The position numbers and the translations under genes are program-made. From Bacteroidales bacterium (GTDB taxonomy: Bacteria; Bacteroidota; Bacteroidia; Bacteroidales; WCHB1-69), in contig JAZUEE010000073.1 in the NCBI GenBank assembly GCA_045639985.1, positions 1 through 44,269 on the forward strand: a DNA stretch of 44,269 nucleotides, written 5' to 3'. A model generated the notes under the pieces. That model searched no databases, was not told where the DNA came from, and saw only the letters and a list, made by a program, of their open reading frames with translations. Below, one piece after another: positions 142 through 44,269 of the stretch. Each line of letters begins with the position of its first letter. Positions within the stretch are counted from its first letter, which is position 1.

Positions 142-330
142 AATGCCTGTATACGCCGTGATGCCATGGGAACGCACAGGGTATTTTGCAAACGAGCCAA
201 GTTCAAGCATTGGCATGAATTGGGCAAGCATCACGAAACGGATGTTGCGTTTGAAAGGGCGTTGCGTTCTGGCTTGGTACGATGGGAAACGGCCATTGTT
301 GACCATTCCAAATTATTTTTGAAAGATTAA
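136..330 (+). CDS. hypothetical small basic His/Arg/Lys-rich protein (64 aa)
   Basis: ATG ORF starting 7 nt after the preceding stop and ending 1 nt before the promoter repeat at 331. It uses the genome-typical TTG Leu codons. No motif recognised. Confidence 0.4.
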   Translation: MVNACIRRDAMGTHRVFCKRAKFKHWHELGKHHETDVAFERALRSGLVRWETAIVDHSKLFLKD

Positions 331-340
331 GTAAAAAAGT

Positions 341-371
341 TTTGGTATTTAAATAACTATACTTATATTTG
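341..371 (+). promoter_or_regulatory. Bacteroidota-type promoter, early-promoter repeat copy 1 (TTTG 341-344, 19-nt spacer, TATATTTG 364-371)
   Basis: Matches TTTG-N19-TAnnTTTG. The ~100-nt block 331-427 recurs at 9581-9678, 34651-34752 and 37721-37818. Confidence 0.7.
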
Positions 372-395
372 CATTCGGAAATAATGACCAACGCA

Positions 396-411
396 CCGGG
401 GCGGTTCCCGG
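396..411 (+). promoter_or_regulatory. Leader hairpin CCGGG-GCGGTT-CCCGG, 16 nt upstream of the ATG at 428
   Basis: Perfect 5-bp stem with a 6-nt loop, followed by ATAAAACA. Same design at seven other leaders. Confidence 0.7.
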
Positions 412-427
412 ATAAAACATAAAGATT

Positions 428-703
428 ATGAACACAACATTTGTACAGGACATCGCAATAATCGCAAACCATTTGAATGGTAAAATTGAATTTTCAAACA
501 TCAAGTTTAACCAGAAATTGTTGGGCGAGGAATACCGCGAGAAAAATGTAAACAACATTGTATTTGTCAAGAAGGTGTATGGCGTATATTTTTATACAAC
601 ACGTGCTGCAATGGAATCAATGATAATGTTGAGTAAAAAGGAAATGCCGGTGTTGGTGGGTTGTGATAACTCCTTGAATCTTTACGAGATTACCAAGTGG
701 TAA
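428..703 (+). CDS. hypothetical protein (91 aa), first gene behind early promoter copy 1
   Basis: ATG ORF directly downstream of the promoter and leader hairpin. No motif recognised. Confidence 0.7.
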   Translation: MNTTFVQDIAIIANHLNGKIEFSNIKFNQKLLGEEYREKNVNNIVFVKKVYGVYFYTTRAAMESMIMLSKKEMPVLVGCDNSLNLYEITKW

Positions 704-1360: not shown

Positions 1361-1451
1361 AAATGGCGGGTGTCATTCCTAACAAGTTAAACTTTAAAAC
1401 AATTTTTGTCTTTATAAGAAAACACCCATTTTACGCACTCACCCGCCATTT
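1361..1451. repeat. 12-bp perfect inverted repeat (AAATGGCGGGTG 1361-1372 / CACCCGCCATTT 1440-1451) enclosing 67 nt
   Basis: The arms are exact reverse complements and are followed by ATTTTG. The repeat starts 2 nt after tRNA-Leu. Confidence 0.8.
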
Positions 1452-1465
1452 ATTTTGAAAGCCGA

Positions 1466-1481
1466 CCGGGCGTATTCCCGG
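1466..1481 (+). promoter_or_regulatory. Leader hairpin CCGGG-CGTATT-CCCGG, 18 nt upstream of the ATG at 1500
   Basis: Same CCGGG-N6-CCCGG formula as 396-411. Confidence 0.65.
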
Positions 1482-1499
1482 AACTGAAAAACAAGCGAT

Positions 1500-4381: not shown

Positions 4382-4560
4382 ACGAAATACAGAAGAAGCC
4401 AAGCCGCAAACCGGCAATCAAATATGGCGTGCATTACAAAGGTTATCATCTGGTAACTATTGACCGCCAAGAAGCCGAAAAGGTATTTGAAGAATTGCCC
4501 GGCGGCATATTAACCGAGAAATCGCCAAGTGGCGAAACAACCATCATAAAAGAGAAATAA
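4378..4560 (+). CDS. hypothetical protein (60 aa)
   Basis: ATGA overlap with the upstream stop. No motif recognised. Confidence 0.6.
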   Translation: MNEIQKKPSRKPAIKYGVHYKGYHLVTIDRQEAEKVFEELPGGILTEKSPSGETTIIKEK

Positions 4561-4578
4561 CATAAAGCGATACGAACC

Positions 4579-5337
4579 ATGATTGATTTTAGCGAAATTG
4601 TTTACTTTGACTGTGAAACAACAGGCTTGCCGCCAAAGGATGCCAAATGGGATGTTGACTTTGAGCAATTCCCACGCATTTGCCAATTGTCTTGGATTTA
4701 CAATGGCAAGGAAGAAAACCACATTATCAAGCCGGAAGGTTGGACAATCCCACAGGAAGCCACCGATGTACATGGCATAACAACTGAATATGCCTTGGAA
4801 TATGGCGAACCGATTGCCGATGTAATGGCGCAATTCCTGCTTGATTGCTCACAGGCGAAATTGATATGCGGCCACAACATTTACTTTGATGTGTCAACCA
4901 TTAAATCCGAGCTGATGCGTGCGCAAGCATACGGAGAAATAGCCGAGCAAGCTTTGTTCAAGGGCAAGCGCATTGACACCATGCGCCCATCAATGAAATT
5001 CGTTGATGCCAGATTTTCCAATGGCCGTTTGAAATTTCCAAAATTGGAAGAGTTGTATGCACGATGCTTTCCGGGCGAAAGCTTCCCGGCGCATGATGCG
5101 ATTGAGGATGTGCGTGCCGTTGTTCGTTGTCTGCCTGTATTGGTTGAAAAAGGCATCATTGAACTTGTGGTTAAGGAGTACCCGGAAGAAACGGCCAATA
5201 ACGCCCCAATTTCGCAAGATGTAACCAAAGTGGATAAAGTACCCACACAGGAAGAAAAACGCCCGCAGAACGAAAATCCGGCTAAAATAACGCCAAACGG
5301 TAGGTTGGCCGAAATGTTGGCCGATGAAAATTTTTAA
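4579..5337 (+). CDS. DnaQ-like (DEDDh) 3'-5' exonuclease (252 aa)
   Basis: ExoI VYFDCETTGL, ExoII GHNIYFDVSTI, ExoIII FPAHDAIEDVRAV (H-x4-D). Confidence 0.85.
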   Translation: MIDFSEIVYFDCETTGLPPKDAKWDVDFEQFPRICQLSWIYNGKEENHIIKPEGWTIPQEATDVHGITTEYALEYGEPIADVMAQFLLDCSQAKLICGHNIYFDVSTIKSELMRAQAYGEIAEQALFKGKRIDTMRPSMKFVDARFSNGRLKFPKLEELYARCFPGESFPAHDAIEDVRAVVRCLPVLVEKGIIELVVKEYPEETANNAPISQDVTKVDKVPTQEEKRPQNENPAKITPNGRLAEMLADENF

Positions 5338-7545: not shown

Positions 7546-7561
7546 CCGGGGGCAACCCCGG
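7546..7561 (+). promoter_or_regulatory. Leader hairpin CCGGG-GGCAAC-CCCGG, 17 nt upstream of the ATG at 7579
   Basis: Same formula, followed by ATAAAACA. It lies in the short ssb-downstream spacer with no promoter match. Confidence 0.65.
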
Positions 7562-9504: not shown

Positions 9505-9547
9505 CCGGGGCGTTAAGCAAGCAGGCCGCCCCGGATTTGTCGTTTTT
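9505..9547 (+). terminator. Rho-independent terminator
   Basis: 8-bp stem CCGGGGCG (9505-9512) / CGCCCCGG (9527-9534), followed by ATTTGTCGTTTTT. Confidence 0.8.
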
Positions 9548-9588
9548 AGGTGGATAATGCAAAAAAGTGAATAATAAAAACAAAAAGT

Positions 9589-9619
9589 TTTGGTGTTTAA
9601 TAAAAGTTCACTATGTTTG
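9589..9619 (+). promoter_or_regulatory. Early-promoter repeat copy 2 (TTTG 9589-9592, 19-nt spacer, TATGTTTG 9612-9619)
   Basis: Aligns with copies 1, 3 and 4 across AAAAAGTTTTGGTRTTTAA and TTTGYATTCGGAAAT. Confidence 0.7.
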
Positions 9620-9644
9620 TATTCGGAAATGATAACCAAACGGA

Positions 9645-9660
9645 TGCGGCCGGTTCCGCA
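9645..9660 (+). promoter_or_regulatory. Leader hairpin variant TGCGG-CCGGTT-CCGCA, 18 nt upstream of the ATG at 9679
   Basis: Same position, 16-nt size and loop ending in TT as the other copies. The stem sequence differs but both arms change together, so pairing is kept. Confidence 0.6.
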
Positions 9661-9678
9661 ATTAACACAAACAAGATC

Positions 9679-9852
9679 ATGGCAACAAAAGATTTTAGAT
9701 TCAAAGTAACTTACTTGCACGAATACATGGCATTGGCATTTGTAAGGGTTGAGGATGATTTGATGATTTACGTTAACGAAAATGAAGATTTCGTAATGAT
9801 GTTTGCCAAAGGTTATTGCGCCGCCAAAGGAGAAGATTTCTTTGTAGAATAA
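9679..9852 (+). CDS. hypothetical acidic protein (57 aa)
   Basis: Start set at the ATG at 9679, because the track start 9613 lies inside the -7 promoter box. A GGGGCGG/CCGCCCC hairpin follows at 9858-9875. Confidence 0.55.
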   Translation: MATKDFRFKVTYLHEYMALAFVRVEDDLMIYVNENEDFVMMFAKGYCAAKGEDFFVE

Positions 9853-9857
9853 GAACA

Positions 9858-9875
9858 GGGGCGGTTACCCGCCCC
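9858..9875 (+). terminator. Hairpin GGGGCGG-TTAC-CCGCCCC (terminator-like, no U tract)
   Basis: 7-bp GC stem with the same stem sequence as the hairpin at 38069-38086, which closes the other single-gene early cassette. Confidence 0.5.
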
Positions 9876-9893: not shown

Positions 9894-9909
9894 CCGGGGC
9901 CATTCCCGG
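9894..9909 (+). promoter_or_regulatory. Leader hairpin CCGGG-GCCATT-CCCGG, 21 nt upstream of the ATG at 9931
   Basis: Same formula, followed by AAACGATAAAACA. Confidence 0.65.
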
Positions 9910-10469: not shown

Positions 10470-10493
10470 ACAGGCCAATGCGGCCTGTTTTTG
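10470..10493 (+). terminator. Rho-independent terminator
   Basis: Stem ACAGGCC/GGCCTGT with loop AATGC, followed by TTTTTG. Confidence 0.8.
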
Positions 10494-10520
10494 TCGTAAG
10501 AAATAAAATGCCTATATTTG
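10490..10520 (+). promoter_or_regulatory. Bacteroidota-type promoter (TTTG 10490-10493, 19-nt spacer, TATATTTG 10513-10520)
   Basis: Exact consensus match. The -33 element overlaps the terminator U tract. Confidence 0.65.
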
Positions 10521-22480: not shown

Positions 22481-23252
22481 GATTGGAAAACACGATGTGG
22501 TGTTGTACGATTCAATAGAAGAATTGCCAATTGCCAGATTCCACAAATACCAAAAGTTCCTGTTGGTTGATTCCGGGATCGGGGCAACCATGGAAGATTT
22601 TGACAAGCACATTGAAAAGGCACGCCGATTCTGCATGCTGAATGACACGGCCAACGCACAAAAGGAGTTGGACAATTTGCGCCAATGTGTGTTCATGATC
22701 CAAAATGGCATATCTCCCAAACATTTGGCCTTTGCCTGTCTGGTATTTGCAATTGACAACACCCAATGCGTTGATATTTCGGATGATGGTTTGGCAAAGG
22801 TTGTTGCAACATTTGCAGATGCACCAAATCAAGAATTGACCGACCGCATGGATTCGGTCAAAAAAAAAATAGATGCTGAAATAACATTGTACTTTCCCAA
22901 TCTCAACGAGGATTCGGATGTTAAAGATTATTACGAAAAGGTGCGCAAGCGCACGTTGTTGGTCTTGCAAAACATCATGGCCGGGGAATCACGCCCGGAT
23001 GAAACAAGCGATGTTGACCGATTGACAACGGAGTTAATTTGCTACATGCACCCACAGGTATTTAACGGCTCTGCATCGGTGGAAATACAATTTGACCGCC
23101 AATTTGAAAACCTTTGCTTGACCTTGGCTGGGCAATTGAACGTAAATCCCAAGGATTATACGGTCTTGGAGTTTTACAATGCGTTTGAATACTTGAAAGA
23201 AAAGGCCAAATCCAACGCACGGGCGCAAAAGCAAGGCCGTACAGGCCGTTAA
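22467..23252 (+). CDS. hypothetical protein in tail-assembly-chaperone position (261 aa)
   Basis: Immediately upstream of the tape measure gene. Contains an internal A10 tract. Confidence 0.55.
   Translation: MKTVKIGKHDVVLYDSIEELPIARFHKYQKFLLVDSGIGATMEDFDKHIEKARRFCMLNDTANAQKELDNLRQCVFMIQNGISPKHLAFACLVFAIDNTQCVDISDDGLAKVVATFADAPNQELTDRMDSVKKKIDAEITLYFPNLNEDSDVKDYYEKVRKRTLLVLQNIMAGESRPDETSDVDRLTTELICYMHPQVFNGSASVEIQFDRQFENLCLTLAGQLNVNPKDYTVLEFYNAFEYLKEKAKSNARAQKQGRTGR
22860..22869 (+). repeat. A10 homopolymer inside 22467..23252
   Basis: Read directly as gtc aaa aaa aaa ata. A9 gives an immediate TAG; A11 reaches TGA within 6 codons. Confidence 0.9.
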
Positions 23253-23262
23253 ACATCGCAGA

Positions 23263-23322
23263 CGTACAATTTACCCTTTTTGAAATAAAACGCCGTTATA
23301 CGGCAAATTTTAAGAAAATAAC
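23263..23322 (+). promoter_or_regulatory. 60-nt conserved module copy E (box CGTACAATTTACC, inverse orientation of the copy D box), ending 3 nt before the tape measure ATG
   Basis: Same 39-nt spacing to AAAATAAC. GAAATAAAACGCC and GCCGTTATAC are shared with copies A and C. Confidence 0.7.
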
Positions 23323-34423: not shown

Positions 34424-34453
34424 AAGGCGGCATTGAATAAATGCGGCCTTTTT
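34424..34453 (+). terminator. Rho-independent terminator (imperfect stem AAGGCGGCAT/ATGCGGCCTT, then TTTTT)
   Basis: 10-bp stem with one G-G mismatch, followed by a U tract. Confidence 0.65.
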
Positions 34454-34491
34454 GTGTCTTTGCAACCGAGTTTGATTACTACCATAATCCA

Positions 34492-34530
34492 ATCGGGGTT
34501 CATTGTGAAACGCGCCCCGATTTTCCGTTT
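34492..34530 (+). terminator. Second terminator (ATCGGGG 34492-34498 / CCCCGAT 34515-34521, then TTTTCCGTTTT)
   Basis: 7-bp stem, 16-nt loop and U-rich tail. Confidence 0.6.
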
Positions 34531-34572
34531 TGGCTAAAATTGGGCTATTTGGCGCACTTTTGCGTATGGGAT

Positions 34573-34632
34573 GGCACAATGTACCGCAGAAGGAATAAAA
34601 AGCGAAATACGGCCATTTTTCAAGAAAATAAC
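34573..34632 (+). promoter_or_regulatory. 60-nt conserved module copy B (box GGCACAATGTACC 34573-34585)
   Basis: Identical box and 39-nt spacing to AAAATAAC. Lies 76 nt upstream of the -33 element of early promoter copy 3. Confidence 0.7.
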
Positions 34633-34660
34633 ATTTTTGCGTATAATTAAACAAAAAAGT

Positions 34661-34691
34661 TTTGGTATTTAAGGGAATAGTGTTACCTTTG
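34661..34691 (+). promoter_or_regulatory. Early-promoter repeat copy 3 (TTTG 34661-34664, 19-nt spacer, TACCTTTG 34684-34691)
   Basis: Consensus match and alignment with copies 1, 2 and 4. Confidence 0.7.
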
Positions 34692-34720
34692 CATTCGGGT
34701 TGAGGGTTCAACCACACCGG

Positions 34721-34736
34721 CCGGGCGGGTTCCCGG
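34721..34736 (+). promoter_or_regulatory. Leader hairpin CCGGG-CGGGTT-CCCGG, 16 nt upstream of the ATG at 34753
   Basis: Same formula, followed by ATAAACA. Confidence 0.7.
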
Positions 34737-34752
34737 ATAAACACCAAAGGTT

Positions 34753-35001
34753 ATGGCAAAAGCAATTTATAACGGTCTTAATTACTCAACAAGGGAGATC
34801 AACCGCAATTTCAAAATCAAAGTCACAGGCATTGTTGAGGGTCGCAAAATCAATACATTGGTAGGCGTTGCCGGTCTTATCGCATACGTTGGCGATATAG
34901 AGTTGACAAACAGGCTGATTGGCCGTGCGTTTGATCCTATGAAGGACAAACAGGTTTGCAAGCTTCGCAGAGGTATTGCCATCCATTTCTATTATTACTA
35001 A
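34753..35001 (+). CDS. hypothetical protein (82 aa)
   Basis: First ORF behind early promoter copy 3. Confidence 0.65.
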   Translation: MAKAIYNGLNYSTREINRNFKIKVTGIVEGRKINTLVGVAGLIAYVGDIELTNRLIGRAFDPMKDKQVCKLRRGIAIHFYYY

Positions 35002-37377: not shown

Positions 37378-37436
37378 TGCGATGAACAAAGATAGTAATT
37401 TTTTATATCTTTGCGATGGATTCCATAAGCTTTTCG

Positions 37437-37474
37437 CCCCAGATGTTCGGCCATAGCATCTGGGGTTTATTTTT
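37437..37474 (+). terminator. Rho-independent terminator
   Basis: 9-bp stem CCCCAGATG (37437-37445) / CATCTGGGG (37457-37465), followed by TTTATTTTT. Confidence 0.8.
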
Positions 37475-37477
37475 GGG

Positions 37478-37529
37478 GGTTCACGGAAATTTGCAACCGG
37501 TTCACAGGGGGTTCACGCAACCGGTTCAC
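37478..37529. repeat. Iteron array: four GGTTCAC repeats at 37478, 37499, 37510 and 37523
   Basis: GGGGGTTCACG and CAACCGGTTCAC alternate twice. Spacings are 21, 11 and 13 nt. AACCGGTT is an 8-bp palindrome. Confidence 0.8.
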
Positions 37530-37570
37530 GCATGGATTGTCGTATTTTTTTGTTATGGGGTTATCGTTTT

Positions 37571-37582
37571 CGTAACGTTACG
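37571..37582. repeat. 12-bp perfect palindrome CGTAACGTTACG
   Basis: Self-complementary sequence read directly, within the intergenic region. Confidence 0.8.
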
Positions 37583-37641
37583 AATATGGTATGGCCATGG
37601 TGGCCGCAAACAAGGCCGTACAGGGCATTTGATGTTCCGGC

Positions 37642-37701
37642 GGCACAATGTACCATGCGCCCATACAAATGCCGTTATACACAAAATTCCCCAAAAATAA
37701 C
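37642..37701 (+). promoter_or_regulatory. 60-nt conserved module copy C (box GGCACAATGTACC 37642-37654)
   Basis: Identical box and 39-nt spacing to AAAATAAC. Lies 76 nt upstream of the -33 element of early promoter copy 4, the same geometry as copy B. Confidence 0.7.
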
Positions 37702-37729
37702 TGATTGTATAAAAATTAGTGCAATTTAT

Positions 37730-37760
37730 TTTGGTGTTTAAATAAAGTTTTGTATTTTCG
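37730..37760 (+). promoter_or_regulatory. Early-promoter repeat copy 4 (TTTG 37730-37733, 19-nt spacer, TATTTTCG 37753-37760)
   Basis: Aligns base for base with copy 1. The -7 box has one mismatch to TAnnTTTG. Confidence 0.6.
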
Positions 37761-37784
37761 TGGTCGGAAATAGTAACCAACGCG

Positions 37785-37800
37785 CCGGGGCGGTTCCCGG
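37785..37800 (+). promoter_or_regulatory. Leader hairpin CCGGG-GCGGTT-CCCGG, 18 nt upstream of the ATG at 37819
   Basis: Identical to the hairpin at 396-411. Confidence 0.7.
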
Positions 37801-37818
37801 ACTAAAAAACACAAGATT

Positions 37819-38064
37819 ATGGCAAACAACGTAACAAAAACATTCAACGGCAAGAAATACACCTATTCAATCAACGGCAGAGCATACAGACAATCAACAC
37901 GTGATTTCAAATATGCTTGTGTTGCCATATCAAGAGTTGCAAAAGGTGCAGCAAGTGAAGGTAATGAGTTCATTATATCGTTGGGCAATCATTATCAAAG
38001 CACATATAATTCCATGGCTCGTTTCTATGACCATTGCGACCTTCGTATTGAAGAAATTAAATAA
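37819..38064 (+). CDS. hypothetical protein (81 aa)
   Basis: Single ORF between early promoter copy 4 and the hairpin at 38069-38086. Confidence 0.65.
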   Translation: MANNVTKTFNGKKYTYSINGRAYRQSTRDFKYACVAISRVAKGAASEGNEFIISLGNHYQSTYNSMARFYDHCDLRIEEIK

Positions 38065-38068
38065 ATCC

Positions 38069-38086
38069 GGGGCGGGCAACCGCCCC
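38069..38086 (+). terminator. Hairpin GGGGCGG-GCAA-CCGCCCC (terminator-like, no U tract)
   Basis: Same stem sequence as 9858-9875. Confidence 0.5.
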
Positions 38087-38521: not shown

Positions 38522-39859
38522 ATGGAAAGCGATATGAAACCACAGGTTGCCGAGATTGTACCCGGCATGACCGTTGAAGAAATGGCGGCATTGTATTATG
38601 ATGCCCAGGCTTTGCGAGAAGCACCATACAAAGTGTATCAGTTGAATAGTGATGGCCATCGCTATTATTACCGATTTGATGCCAATGGCGAACCGCATTT
38701 TTACCCAAGTGTAACCACCCTGTTGAAGCAGACAATGCCAACATCGCCGTTCTTGATTGAATGGATGATAAAGAACGGTGCCGAAGGTTCGGTTGAGAAG
38801 CGAGATTTGGCGGCGGCTTACGGCACATTCATGCACGCGCAGTTTGAAAGGCTGATTATCAACAGGTCTTACAATTTTGATGATGTGCCGGGCATCCTGT
38901 TGCAGTACATGGAACAAAACAACTTGCCGGATAAGTTCTATGGCGATTCGTTGACAAAGATACGCAAGGATGTATGCGCGTTTGCGCAGTTCGTACAGGA
39001 TTACAATGTCAAGCCATTGGCCGTTGAGGTTGCATTGGTGCATCCAGATTACCGCTATGCCGGAATGATAGATTTGCCATGCGTAATGACCGATCCAAAG
39101 ACCGGCGAACAATTTTCCGCGATCGTGGATTTCAAGAGTGGCCGCAAAGGCTTCTATGAGGAACACGAAATACAATTGCATCTTTACAAAATGATGTGGA
39201 ATGCAAACAATCTGGGCATGCCAATTAGCCGTGTTTTCAGCTTTTCTCCGAAGGATTGGCGAGGTGTCAAGCCAACGTACAATTTGAAAGATCAGACCGA
39301 TTCGCCCAATGCGGCCAAAATTCCGTCATTGTTGCAGTTGGCAGCGATTGAGGATGGCAAGATAGACAACACATTTACGGTCATTGCCGGTTCCCTGTCG
39401 TTGGATGCCTACAACCCCAAAGCTTGCATAACCTCATTGTCATTGGCCGAACTTATCAAGACCAAGGGCAAGAAGGAAGAAACGCCGGATGTCGGCTTTG
39501 TTCCAGAACAAGGCGAAAGTGAGCCAAAGAAGGGTGTTTCCGTGCCAGAACATGGGGAAAGTGAACGAATTGCCGCCGAATACGACATTTGCGAACATCA
39601 TTGCAAGACGCGTAATTGCGATTACAACTTTGGTTCTCACGGCACGAAATGCGAAGCGGCCAAAGCGGCATCGGAAGGCAAGGACAATTTGGATTGGCTG
39701 AAAACCGATGATGAAAGGGCAGAAGCCGCCGCCAAGGCCGAAAACAAGGCGCGTACAGGCCGAAAGACAACGAAGGTGGACAATGTGCCACCAAAGAAGG
39801 AAAACGCCGTTAAAACGGATTTTTCGCAAAAATTACTGAACACCGAAATTGAATTGTAA
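38522..39859 (+). CDS. PD-(D/E)xK (RecB/Cas4-like) exonuclease with Lys/Glu-rich C-terminal extension (445 aa)
   Basis: Motifs YAGMIDL, IVDFKSG (D-x-K) and EIQLHLY (QxxxY) in the canonical order. Confidence 0.75.
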   Translation: MESDMKPQVAEIVPGMTVEEMAALYYDAQALREAPYKVYQLNSDGHRYYYRFDANGEPHFYPSVTTLLKQTMPTSPFLIEWMIKNGAEGSVEKRDLAAAYGTFMHAQFERLIINRSYNFDDVPGILLQYMEQNNLPDKFYGDSLTKIRKDVCAFAQFVQDYNVKPLAVEVALVHPDYRYAGMIDLPCVMTDPKTGEQFSAIVDFKSGRKGFYEEHEIQLHLYKMMWNANNLGMPISRVFSFSPKDWRGVKPTYNLKDQTDSPNAAKIPSLLQLAAIEDGKIDNTFTVIAGSLSLDAYNPKACITSLSLAELIKTKGKKEETPDVGFVPEQGESEPKKGVSVPEHGESERIAAEYDICEHHCKTRNCDYNFGSHGTKCEAAKAASEGKDNLDWLKTDDERAEAAAKAENKARTGRKTTKVDNVPPKKENAVKTDFSQKLLNTEIEL

Positions 39860-39860
39860 T

Positions 39861-40589
39861 ATGGGCGGCAGAATAGTATGCCCGGACAAGGGCGAAGCCA
39901 AGTTATTGTTGAAGGTTTCAAGCCATCTGCAAATTGGCATGAAGGTAAAAGGCCAGAACGGCAAGGAATACCCGACATCGGTTGATTATTTCATCCCATC
40001 AGGCAAATACGCCGAGGTTTTCACAAGGGCGTATGGCGAAAAGCCTAACACGGTGCAGATCATGTTTGTGGATGATGACCCGGAATTGTCTTGCAACGAG
40101 AGGTTGGAGTATTGGAGTTCAAAGGGCGAGTTGGTGGCGCGTGGCGATGGCCAAACGTTTGAAATCTGGGATGGCAACAAATATGCGCCATACACGGTTG
40201 ACAAATACCCGGATATCATGGCACAGGTTGCGGAACGATGCCCCAAGCCAAAGCGCAACGAGAACGACAACGGATGGGATATTGTGCTGACTTTGCGGTT
40301 TCTCATACCATTGGCAAACGAGGTGTTGTGTTTGTGGGATTTCAAGACCAAGGGCGCAGCATCATCAGTCAACAACATTCGTGACACATACGATGCGGTT
40401 CAAAAGATACGCGGCACGGTTCGCGGTTCGGTTTTTGACTTATCGGTGCAGTTCGCCAAATCAGTCAAGCCGGGCGTGAAATCTCGTTATCCTGTTGTGT
40501 CGTTGACTTGTAATGATTCACAGGTTGCCCGCATACAGGATCATTTGAACAAAACGAGAAATTCAACATTATTGTTGGCTGACAAATAA
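39861..40589 (+). CDS. hypothetical protein (242 aa); possible recombination partner of the upstream exonuclease
   Basis: ATG at 39861; the track start 39849 is TTG. Carries an IMFVDDDPE...GELVARGDGQTF motif. The functional guess rests on position only. Confidence 0.55.
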   Translation: MGGRIVCPDKGEAKLLLKVSSHLQIGMKVKGQNGKEYPTSVDYFIPSGKYAEVFTRAYGEKPNTVQIMFVDDDPELSCNERLEYWSSKGELVARGDGQTFEIWDGNKYAPYTVDKYPDIMAQVAERCPKPKRNENDNGWDIVLTLRFLIPLANEVLCLWDFKTKGAASSVNNIRDTYDAVQKIRGTVRGSVFDLSVQFAKSVKPGVKSRYPVVSLTCNDSQVARIQDHLNKTRNSTLLLADK

Positions 40590-40604
40590 AATTGCCTATC
40601 TTTG
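40572..40604 (+). promoter_or_regulatory. Putative promoter (TATCTTTG -7 box at 40597-40604, weak ATTG -33)
   Basis: -7 box TAnnTTTG followed by CATTGAAATAA, similar to the +1 region of the early promoter repeats. Confidence 0.5.
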
Positions 40605-40670
40605 CATTGAAATAAACATTGACCACTACCAATGTAAGGAAAAATAACAGGTATTGAACCCTGTAATATT

Positions 40671-40714
40671 CCCGGTATTTTGGTGTGTAGTGGCCCAAGA
40701 TACCGGGATTTTTT
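40671..40714 (+). terminator. Intrinsic terminator/attenuator in the leader of the initiator gene
   Basis: 8-bp stem CCCGGTAT (40671-40678) / ATACCGGG (40700-40707), followed by ATTTTTT, ending 4 nt before the ATG at 40718. Confidence 0.65.
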
Positions 40715-43963: not shown

Positions 43964-44257
43964 ATGCAACAATTGAAACCAATGACCGTTCCGATAATGG
44001 CCGTGCGTCATTACGGCGCGGAACACCAGAAGAAGAAAGCCATTGAAGAAATGGGCGAGTTGATAACTGCCTTGTCGCGTGAACAGGATGGCCGAGCCAC
44101 CCCGGAAGAGGTAATAACCGAGATTGCCGATGTGCAAATAATGGTGCGCCAATTGGCCTTGATCTACGGCCCGGACAAAGTGGCCAAAGAGATAGACCGA
44201 AAGGAACGCCGATTGATTCGCTGGATGGACAAGGAAAACAAACAATCAAAAGAATAG
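43964..44257 (+). CDS. MazG-like nucleotide pyrophosphohydrolase (97 aa)
   Basis: AIEEMGELITAL (ExxE) and VITEIADVQIMV (ExxD) match the all-alpha NTP-PPase metal-binding pattern. Start at the ATG at 43964, 1 nt after the upstream stop. Confidence 0.6.
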   Translation: MQQLKPMTVPIMAVRHYGAEHQKKKAIEEMGELITALSREQDGRATPEEVITEIADVQIMVRQLALIYGPDKVAKEIDRKERRLIRWMDKENKQSKE

Positions 44258-44269
44258 CGCAGTATGGTA
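44129..44269. repeat. Terminal direct repeat, exact copy of 1..141
   Basis: Direct comparison of both ends. Confidence 0.95.

Follow-up and report, generated by a model that had tools for sequence, protein, structure and literature searches.

Lambdoid phages reportedly carry morons, which Juhala, Hendrix, and colleagues are said to have defined in 2000 as units consisting of a promoter, a gene, and a terminator. The consensus of the primary sigma factor of the Bacteroidota, as reportedly established by Bayley and colleagues in 2000, is TTTG at -33 and TAnnTTTG at -7. In T4-type myoviruses, promoter-early stem-loop (PeSL) cassettes have been described (Arbiol et al. 2010, PMC2839356; Comeau et al. 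2014, PMC4122927), namely, repeated units with a host-sigma promoter and a stem-loop that precede small orphan genes in variable regions. A further related system is the P_BfP1E6 promoter series, which, as cited in PMC10746243 and bioRxiv 10.1101/2025.03.18.644028, derives from phage B124-14 (Whitaker et al. 2017); a promoter from this phage is strong and constitutive in uninfected Bacteroides (PMC10746243; bioRxiv 10.1101/2025.03.18.644028). Finally, the leaders of Bacteroides capsule operons contain a pause hairpin and an ops site (Saba et al. 2024, PMC11685472).

We analyzed a DNA stretch of 44,269 nt (contig JAZUEE010000073.1, here called the window), which was binned with a 2.36-Mb Bacteroidales MAG. 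Its ends (1 to 141 and 44129 to 44269) are 141 identical bases, indicating a complete circular or terminally redundant genome of 44,128 bp. All plausible genes are on the plus strand, and PHROGs matches comprised the small and large terminase subunits, portal, major capsid protein, a fused ParB-like/DNA methyltransferase, an SbcC-like ATPase, a DNA polymerase exonuclease subunit, an exonuclease, a replication initiator, and a Holliday-junction resolvase. The gene at 34753 to 35001 has relatives in Parabacteroides phage PDS1, Bacteroides phages C1_85S2P and BKO1-3, Alistipes phage AS73P1, Elizabethkingia phage TCUEAP2, and Croceibacter phage P2559S; judged by these relatives, the phage is a siphovirus of the Bacteroidota B40-8/PDS1 group. 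A near-identity search of the phage collection found no close relative of the window, and the nearest complete relative (G001) shares ~70 to 77% nucleotide identity with it. An HNH endonuclease gene (799 to 1272, 36.7% G+C) lies between tRNA-Gln (710 to 781) and tRNA-Leu (1278 to 1360); since it is missing in G001, where both tRNA stretches are kept, it resembles a homing-type insertion. A phage-encoded sigma factor was considered and rejected: the PDS1 gene annotated as "sigma factor" lies just 5' of the terminase large subunit, which is the position of the small terminase subunit in the window, and a direct protein match between these two was not found.

A preliminary description of the window had claimed four copies of a promoter-plus-leader cassette, each heading a different small gene. 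All four blocks were retrieved, at 331 to 427, 9581 to 9678, 34651 to 34752, and 37721 to 37818, with a mean column identity of 76%. The cassette is a unit of ~100 nt composed of an A-rich upstream stretch, a promoter motif, and a leader of ~50 nt with a hairpin before the ATG. The coordinates of the cassettes and associated features are provided in Table 1.

Table 1. Cassettes, hairpins, cargo genes, and terminator in the window
Feature	Position	Strand	Description
Cassette 1	320..427	+	A-rich upstream; -33 TTTG 341-344; -7 TATATTTG 364-371
Cassette 1 hairpin, CCGGG-GCGGTT-CCCGG	396-411	+	A-rich leader, then ATG 428
Cargo 1	428..703	+	91 aa, 35.9% G+C
Decayed fifth cassette copy	1397..1499	+	nhmmer E 5e-8; -7 box lost
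Fifth-copy hairpin, CCGGG-CGTATT-CCCGG	1466-1481	+	18 nt 5' of ATG 1500
Promoterless pre-start hairpin	7546..7561	+	17 nt 5' of ATG 7579
Canonical terminator	9505..9547	+	CCGGGGCG...CGCCCCGG, then TTTGTCGTTTTT; closes replication block just 5' of cassette 2
Cassette 2	9567..9678	+	-33 9589-9592; -7 TATGTTTG 9612-9619
Cassette 2 hairpin, TGCGG-CCGGTT-CCGCA	9645-9660	+	Compensatory stem
Cargo 2	9679..9852	+	57 aa, 35.1% G+C
Hairpin GGGGCGG-TTAC-CCGCCCC	9858..9875	+	Very stable; T-run absent on + strand
Promoterless leader hairpin, CCGGG-GCCATT-CCCGG	9894..9909	+	21 nt 5' of ATG 9931
Cassette 3	34640..34752	+	-33 34661-34664; -7 TACCTTTG 34684-34691
Cassette 3 extra hairpin	34698-34713	+	
Cassette 3 hairpin, CCGGG-CGGGTT-CCCGG	34721-34736	+	
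Cargo 3	34753..35001	+	82 aa, phrog_32997
Cassette 4	37712..37818	+	-33 37730-37733; -7 TATTTTCG 37753-37760 (one mismatch); hairpin 37785-37800
Cargo 4	37819..38064	+	81 aa, 37.0% G+C
Hairpin GGGGCGG-GCAA-CCGCCCC	38069..38086	+	16 nt 5' of ATG 38103; T-run absent on + strand

The -33 TTTG and the 19-nt spacer are present in all four copies. In full cassette copies TTTG is extended to TTTTGGTRTTTAA, the extended -33 element being TTTTGGTAnTTAA, and GTTTTGGTRTTTAA is exact at 339, 9587, and 34659 with one mismatch at 37728. The -7 box TAnnTTTG is exact in 331, 9581, and 34651 and has one mismatch in 37721; accordingly, TTTG-N19-TAnnTTTG matched without mismatch at 341, 9589, and 34661 and with one mismatch (TATTTTCG) at 37730. 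The leader boxes proposed as common to all, TTCGGAAAT and AACCAAC, are shared by three copies, and copy 34651 has a different leader (TTCGGGTTGAGGGTTCAACCAC, with the extra hairpin). By itself the minimal -33/-7 pattern is not enriched (15 matches versus 9.8 expected in the window); a profile of the four copies retrieved each of them from the window with E values of 1e-30 to 2e-33. Judged by these motifs, the promoter part of the cassette fits the -33/-7 form of the Bacteroidota primary sigma factor. The leader lacks a Shine-Dalgarno sequence and has an A-rich stretch after the hairpin, and its stability as a whole is unremarkable (z-scores near 0). An exact search for the TCGGAAAT...ACCAAC leader returned only two matches, both in unrelated coding sequence, and this leader variant is therefore taken to be private to the window phage.

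Two further types of repeated elements were seen. (i) A second repeat family, GGCCGTACAGG...ACAATGTACC...AAACGCCGTTATAC...AAAATAAC, is located at 23229 to 23322, 37608 to 37701, and 39743 to 39836, and also at ~34560 to 34640 and 289 to 330. It stands directly 5' of cassettes 34651 and 37721, in part 5' of cassette 331, and also precedes the tape-measure gene. Two small ORFs (34441 to 34650 and 37416 to 37700) overlap it and may not be real genes. (ii) A second promoter-like class, at 10490 to 10520 and 40574 to 40604, has AAATAAAAT(T)GCCTAT(A/C)TTTG in common; one copy precedes the ParB/methyltransferase gene and the other the replication-initiator gene, with longer leaders that differ from each other. 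At ~40670 to 40714, a long hairpin followed by TTTTTT ends ~3 nt 5' of the replication-initiator ATG (40718) and is a possible attenuator.

The cassette hairpin consists of a 5-bp G+C stem and a 6-nt loop and is located 16 to 18 nt 5' of the ATG. Matches to its 17-nt core (CCGGGGCGGTTCCCGGA, up to 3 mismatches) numbered 4 in the window, against 0.11 expected. Copy 9581 has a stem, TGCGG/CCGCA, that differs from that of the other copies while pairing is kept. All-G+C 5-bp hairpins in the window lie upstream of a plus-strand ORF start in 9 of 16 cases, at distances of 16 to 21 nt (eight hairpins) or 30 nt (one hairpin); on the minus strand, just two precede a frame of ORF length, and no genes are called there. 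As the hairpin also precedes promoterless genes (Table 1), it is considered a separable module. Its distance to the ATG across relatives is mostly 16 to 22 nt, with one cassette family at 7 nt. We then aligned 52 distinct hairpin regions, of which 50 came from sequence-only matches and two from pattern matches in the window. In this alignment 96.9% of the cells are paired, and both-side changes are found in 4 of the 5 pairs (CG to GC or UA; GC to CG or AU). The covariation score was reached by none of 500 shuffles, and the signal collapsed when the 3' partner column was slid by one to three places. The covariation shows that the leader hairpin is a selected structure. A pseudoknot between the loop and downstream sequence was unsupported in a crude pairing test (4.28 contiguous pairs versus 4.08 with shuffled downstream sequence).

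The hairpin is also conserved in sequence. Most stems are CCGGG/CCCGG and most loops end in TT, more conservation than pairing needs, and diverged relatives with differing flanks have one identical 22-nt hairpin block (ACGCACCGGGGCGGTTCCCGGA) in common. This conservation hints at sequence-specific recognition by some factor, a hint that a role as insulator or stabilizer leaves unexplained. CCGGG-N6-CCCGG followed by ATG was found within the 2.36-Mb bin on the phage contig only, and its frequency in 40 related host genomes was at background level. A search of the window against Rfam 15, at the gathering threshold and at E values up to 5, matched two tRNAs and gave no match for the cassette or hairpin. 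Doubtful as we consider it, the hairpin might be a dedicated, family-specific cis RNA signal, read by a factor, for Shine-Dalgarno-independent initiation or for pausing and coupling of RNA polymerase.

To determine the distribution of the cassette, the set of relatives was enlarged by 80 IMG/VR loci encoding the conserved first gene and by loci with the exact hairpin core. The four-copy profile of the window found weaker copies in PDS1, C1_85S2P, AS73P1, BKO1-3, and TCUEAP2, and three rounds of sequence-only nhmmer yielded 246 matches (133 unique) in 94 related loci, usually 2 to 5 per locus and on the gene strand in 228 of the 246 cases. The resulting family consensus is AAAATAAAAGATAAAAG-TTTTGGTAATTAAAA-N-TAnATTTG-leader-GACCGGGCGTTTTCCCGG. 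By these matches, the cassette is common to a whole group of Bacteroidota siphoviruses, namely, PDS1, C1_85S2P, AS73P1, BKO1-3, TCUEAP2, and many uncultured relatives. Phages B124-14, B40-8, PD691P6, and P2559S have -33/-7 promoters with similar cores and lack the hairpin. A distant blastn search with the window cassette retrieved the promoter core only, in a few Bacteroides phages, and the published PDS1 papers do not mention promoters or leaders of this phage. Two observations concern individual relatives. (i) In PDS1 (4430 to 5050), the annotated start of gp11 is upstream of a full cassette (-33 at 4546), and the real start is probably the ATG ~80 nt past the -33 element (~4627); the -7 boxes of the PDS1 cassettes come after positions 1866, 4546, and 10372. 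(ii) IMGVR_UViG_3300031998_000151 has a full cassette with an identical hairpin core plus an extra ORF at 880 to 1000 of the locus, inserted among the structural genes, with the large terminase gene on one side and the next head gene on the other.

The four ORFs behind the cassettes (starting at 428, 9679, 34753, and 37819) are mutually unrelated, with a best pairwise blastp E value of 0.29, and the comparative genomics that had been suggested revealed that, at syntenic sites, the same cassette is followed by different first genes. Both results bear out the earlier proposal that the conserved part is the regulatory cassette and not its cargo. (i) At the 331 site, the window and G001 are homologous across the cassette as far as ATG+6, lose homology over the cargo, and align again from tRNA-Gln onward; the first gene encodes 91 aa in the window, 99 aa in G001, and 66 aa in PDS1. 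(ii) At the 9581 site, G001 has a hairpin homologous to the terminator at 9505 to 9547, which directly abuts the ParB/methyltransferase gene, and the whole 9581 unit is missing; the cassette and three small genes may thus have been inserted in the window or deleted in G001. (iii) The 37721 unit, including its cassette, is missing in G001, and PDS1 has a cassette at this site with a different first gene of 143 aa. (iv) In related contigs, two further cassette positions head two other conserved small genes. (v) One contig (L013) contains two cassette copies ~1.8 kb apart that are identical over the extent of the shorter leader, and cassette copies within a genome are in part more similar than positional orthologs. 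Within the PDS1-like clade each cassette keeps its cargo, so swapping is occasional. Judged by gene order and homology, this comparison with relatives shows a cassette that acts both as a recombination joint and as a portable unit of expression.

The cargo genes differ in their distribution. Homologs of cargo 1 (48 to 49%) are present in PDS1 (gp6), AS73P1, and BKO1-3, where they are the second gene of another operon, the first early operon; in BKO1-3 the homolog has a hairpin-only leader. No homolog of cargo 2 was found among 5.8 billion proteins. In 78 related contigs, the cassette at the 34651 position is followed by cargo 3 as its conserved first gene. For cargo 4, 27 homologs were retrieved, which stand behind other promoters in the contexts of unrelated phages or mobile elements; these contexts include an HK97-type phage with structural genes on the opposite strand and a locus with a weak integrase-family match. 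In two loci (L113 and L114), the homolog follows its own -33/-7 promoter without a CCGGG hairpin, and in the unrelated HK97-type phage (L110, a Logan SRR27406850 contig), it is the second gene of a four-gene opposite-strand island. A G+C hairpin (GGGCCGGGAAACCGGCCC) in L110 (2950 to 3000) precedes the ATG of this homolog by 20 nt, so G+C pre-start hairpins may be widespread in Bacteroidota phages beyond the PDS1 family. The three window-specific cargo genes of the four are AT-rich (35 to 37% G+C versus 45.4% for the genome); because of this composition, and of the homologs of one of them in unrelated phages, they look acquired. The only PHROGs and Pfam matches of the cargo proteins were to families without an assigned function. 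For the 81-aa cargo and the 82-aa first gene, AlphaFold models (pLDDT 79 to 80) had no fold match in the PDB, with best E values of 0.39 and 0.47.

How does the cassette compare with the systems described? (i) It resembles PeSLs as a repeated unit of ~70 to 100 nt with AT-rich sequence, a promoter of the host-sigma consensus, a stem-loop of G+C pairs, and a region for ribosome binding and the start codon, in its position before small orphan genes in variable regions, and in the breakpoints of indels or replacements that lie at cassettes in comparisons of the window with G001 and PDS1. It differs in its promoter, which is of the Bacteroidota -33/-7 type, and in the absence of a Shine-Dalgarno sequence. 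PeSL stem-loops are found in the promoter or beside it and serve as terminators; the covarying stem-loop of the window is inside the predicted leader transcript, at a fixed 16 to 21 nt from the ATG, 3' of the inferred start and without a T-run. There are 4 to 5 copies per genome here versus ~50, and the siphoviruses are unrelated to T4, which makes the cassette an analogue and not a homologue. (ii) With morons it shares small accessory genes that have their own promoter motif and stand between genes adjacent in relatives (the 9581 unit versus G001), a deviant base composition (35 to 37% versus 45.4% G+C), and the occurrence of the same gene, the 81-aa cargo, in unrelated phages. A canonical terminator closing the units is absent here, as the 9858 and 38069 hairpins have no plus-strand T-run; and the promoter-leader is repeated and family-wide, whereas it is unique to each moron. 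(iii) B124-14 belongs to a related phage group with portal, capsid, and replication proteins in common, and its -33/-7 promoters are likewise repeated, preceded by A-rich elements, and similar in their cores (TTTGATATTTAAA...TAACTTTG); the promoters of B124-14 and B40-8 differ by the lack of the CCGGG leader hairpin. (iv) The capsule leaders likewise have a promoter-proximal hairpin at a short, fairly fixed distance from the first start codon, in the same host phylum, but no NusG-paralog gene was found among twenty Pfam-scanned ORFs of the window phage, and the phage hairpin also precedes internal genes. The window cassette is best read, by analogy, as a Bacteroidota counterpart of PeSL or moron cassettes.

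Taken together, these data suggest that the four blocks are probably a portable host-sigma promoter combined with a structured leader without a Shine-Dalgarno sequence, which serves as a recombination joint for small genes. The host primary sigma factor would recognize the -33/-7 elements, and unmodified host RNA polymerase would start ~5 to 8 nt downstream, which places the predicted starts at ~376 (376 to 379), 9624, 34696, and 37765. The transcript would open with a leader of ~50 nt devoid of a Shine-Dalgarno sequence. The hairpin would act on the mRNA, either by preventing competing structures in the A-rich initiation region or by stabilizing the message. In the comparison with relatives, small AT-rich orphan genes are seen to enter or replace one another directly behind the cassette, as at PeSLs and morons. 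The activity of the B124-14 promoter in uninfected Bacteroides shows that a phage promoter of this type can work with the polymerase of the host alone; by analogy, use of the cassettes by host polymerase, and hence early expression, may reasonably be expected.

The preliminary description had gone further and interpreted the four cassettes as a co-regulated immediate-early regulon that could serve host-takeover genes, including two monocistronic units. In this reading the two units would be insulated, each with a promoter, a gene, and a terminator. Host-consensus promoters could indeed fire before any phage protein exists, and early takeover or anti-defense genes are often small and of unknown function, like the cargo genes. 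The two GGGGCGG-N4-CCGCCCC hairpins reported behind 9679..9852 and 37819..38064 are present and very stable (z-scores of -3.2 and -3.5). However, the notion that they close monocistronic units did not hold, as neither has a T-run on the plus strand and a terminator scan flagged both on the minus strand only; T-run hairpins elsewhere in the window, apart from the one 5' of cassette 2, were found after the terminase gene and after the capsid gene. The 38069 hairpin is 16 nt 5' of the ATG of the conserved 38103 gene and is therefore positioned as leader hairpins are. This gene is a homolog of PDS1 gp12, annotated as a helix-turn-helix regulator in the PDS1 record; a Pfam scan of the window protein found neither a helix-turn-helix nor any other match. 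Furthermore, cassette 9581 heads the methyltransferase/terminase side, a block that is not obviously early, and two cassettes are followed by long operons for replication and recombination instead of single genes. Since the cargo proteins have no family or fold match, "takeover" is without support, and we consider such a regulon unlikely.

It is still less probable that the leader hairpin is an elongation signal of the lambda nut, HK022 put, or ops-pause type, causing pausing and subsequent resistance to downstream hairpins. Such a role would agree with a phage-specific, sequence-conserved hairpin just 3' of each promoter, with a genome that forms one long co-directional transcription unit rich in G+C hairpins, and with the documented pause hairpins in Bacteroides leaders, 9 to 42 nt 5' of the first start codon (PMC11685472). 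However, nut and put sites are known only from promoter-proximal leaders of early operons, with a cognate factor or the two-hairpin fold of put; the phage element is a single 5-bp hairpin, and it also precedes internal promoterless genes at a fixed distance from the ATG. No conserved boxA-like partner common to all copies was found, nor was a NusG/KOW-like or N-like protein in a Pfam scan of twenty ORFs (ten cargo or neighboring genes and ten mostly early ones), most of the remaining phage proteins having been scanned against PHROGs only or not at all. Very improbable is a double-stranded DNA operator for a phage repressor, with the 38103 protein as candidate and joint shut-off of the cassettes: the 16-bp inverted repeat CCGGG-N6-CCCGG at about +20 to +35 is strongly conserved and phage specific, and the gp12 homolog is right behind one cassette, but stem variants (TGCGG/CCGCA, CGGGG/CCCCG, CCCGG/CCGGG, and CCGGA/TCCGG) alter the half-sites with pairing kept, the asymmetric loop has a constant orientation relative to the gene, promoterless copies keep a fixed distance to the start codon, and the regulator homolog also occurs in B124-14, PD691P6, and P2559S, where the promoter-plus-hairpin scan and the profile found no cassette. 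Pausing or antitermination and a DNA operator are thus weaker explanations than insulation of the initiation region or stabilization of the message.

The cassette shows an expression layout without Shine-Dalgarno sequences in a common group of gut Bacteroidales phages. Its covarying leader hairpin is a compact test object for translation start in a phylum that does not use Shine-Dalgarno pairing; if it were indeed read by a factor, it would represent a new class of translational or elongation control element, not a passive insulator. By analogy with the B124-14 promoters in use, which they would complement, the cassettes may provide ready-made strong expression parts for the engineering of Bacteroides and Parabacteroides. 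For the phages themselves, the cassettes mark sites where small genes are newly taken up; for host-interaction or anti-defense functions, these genes are likely candidates.
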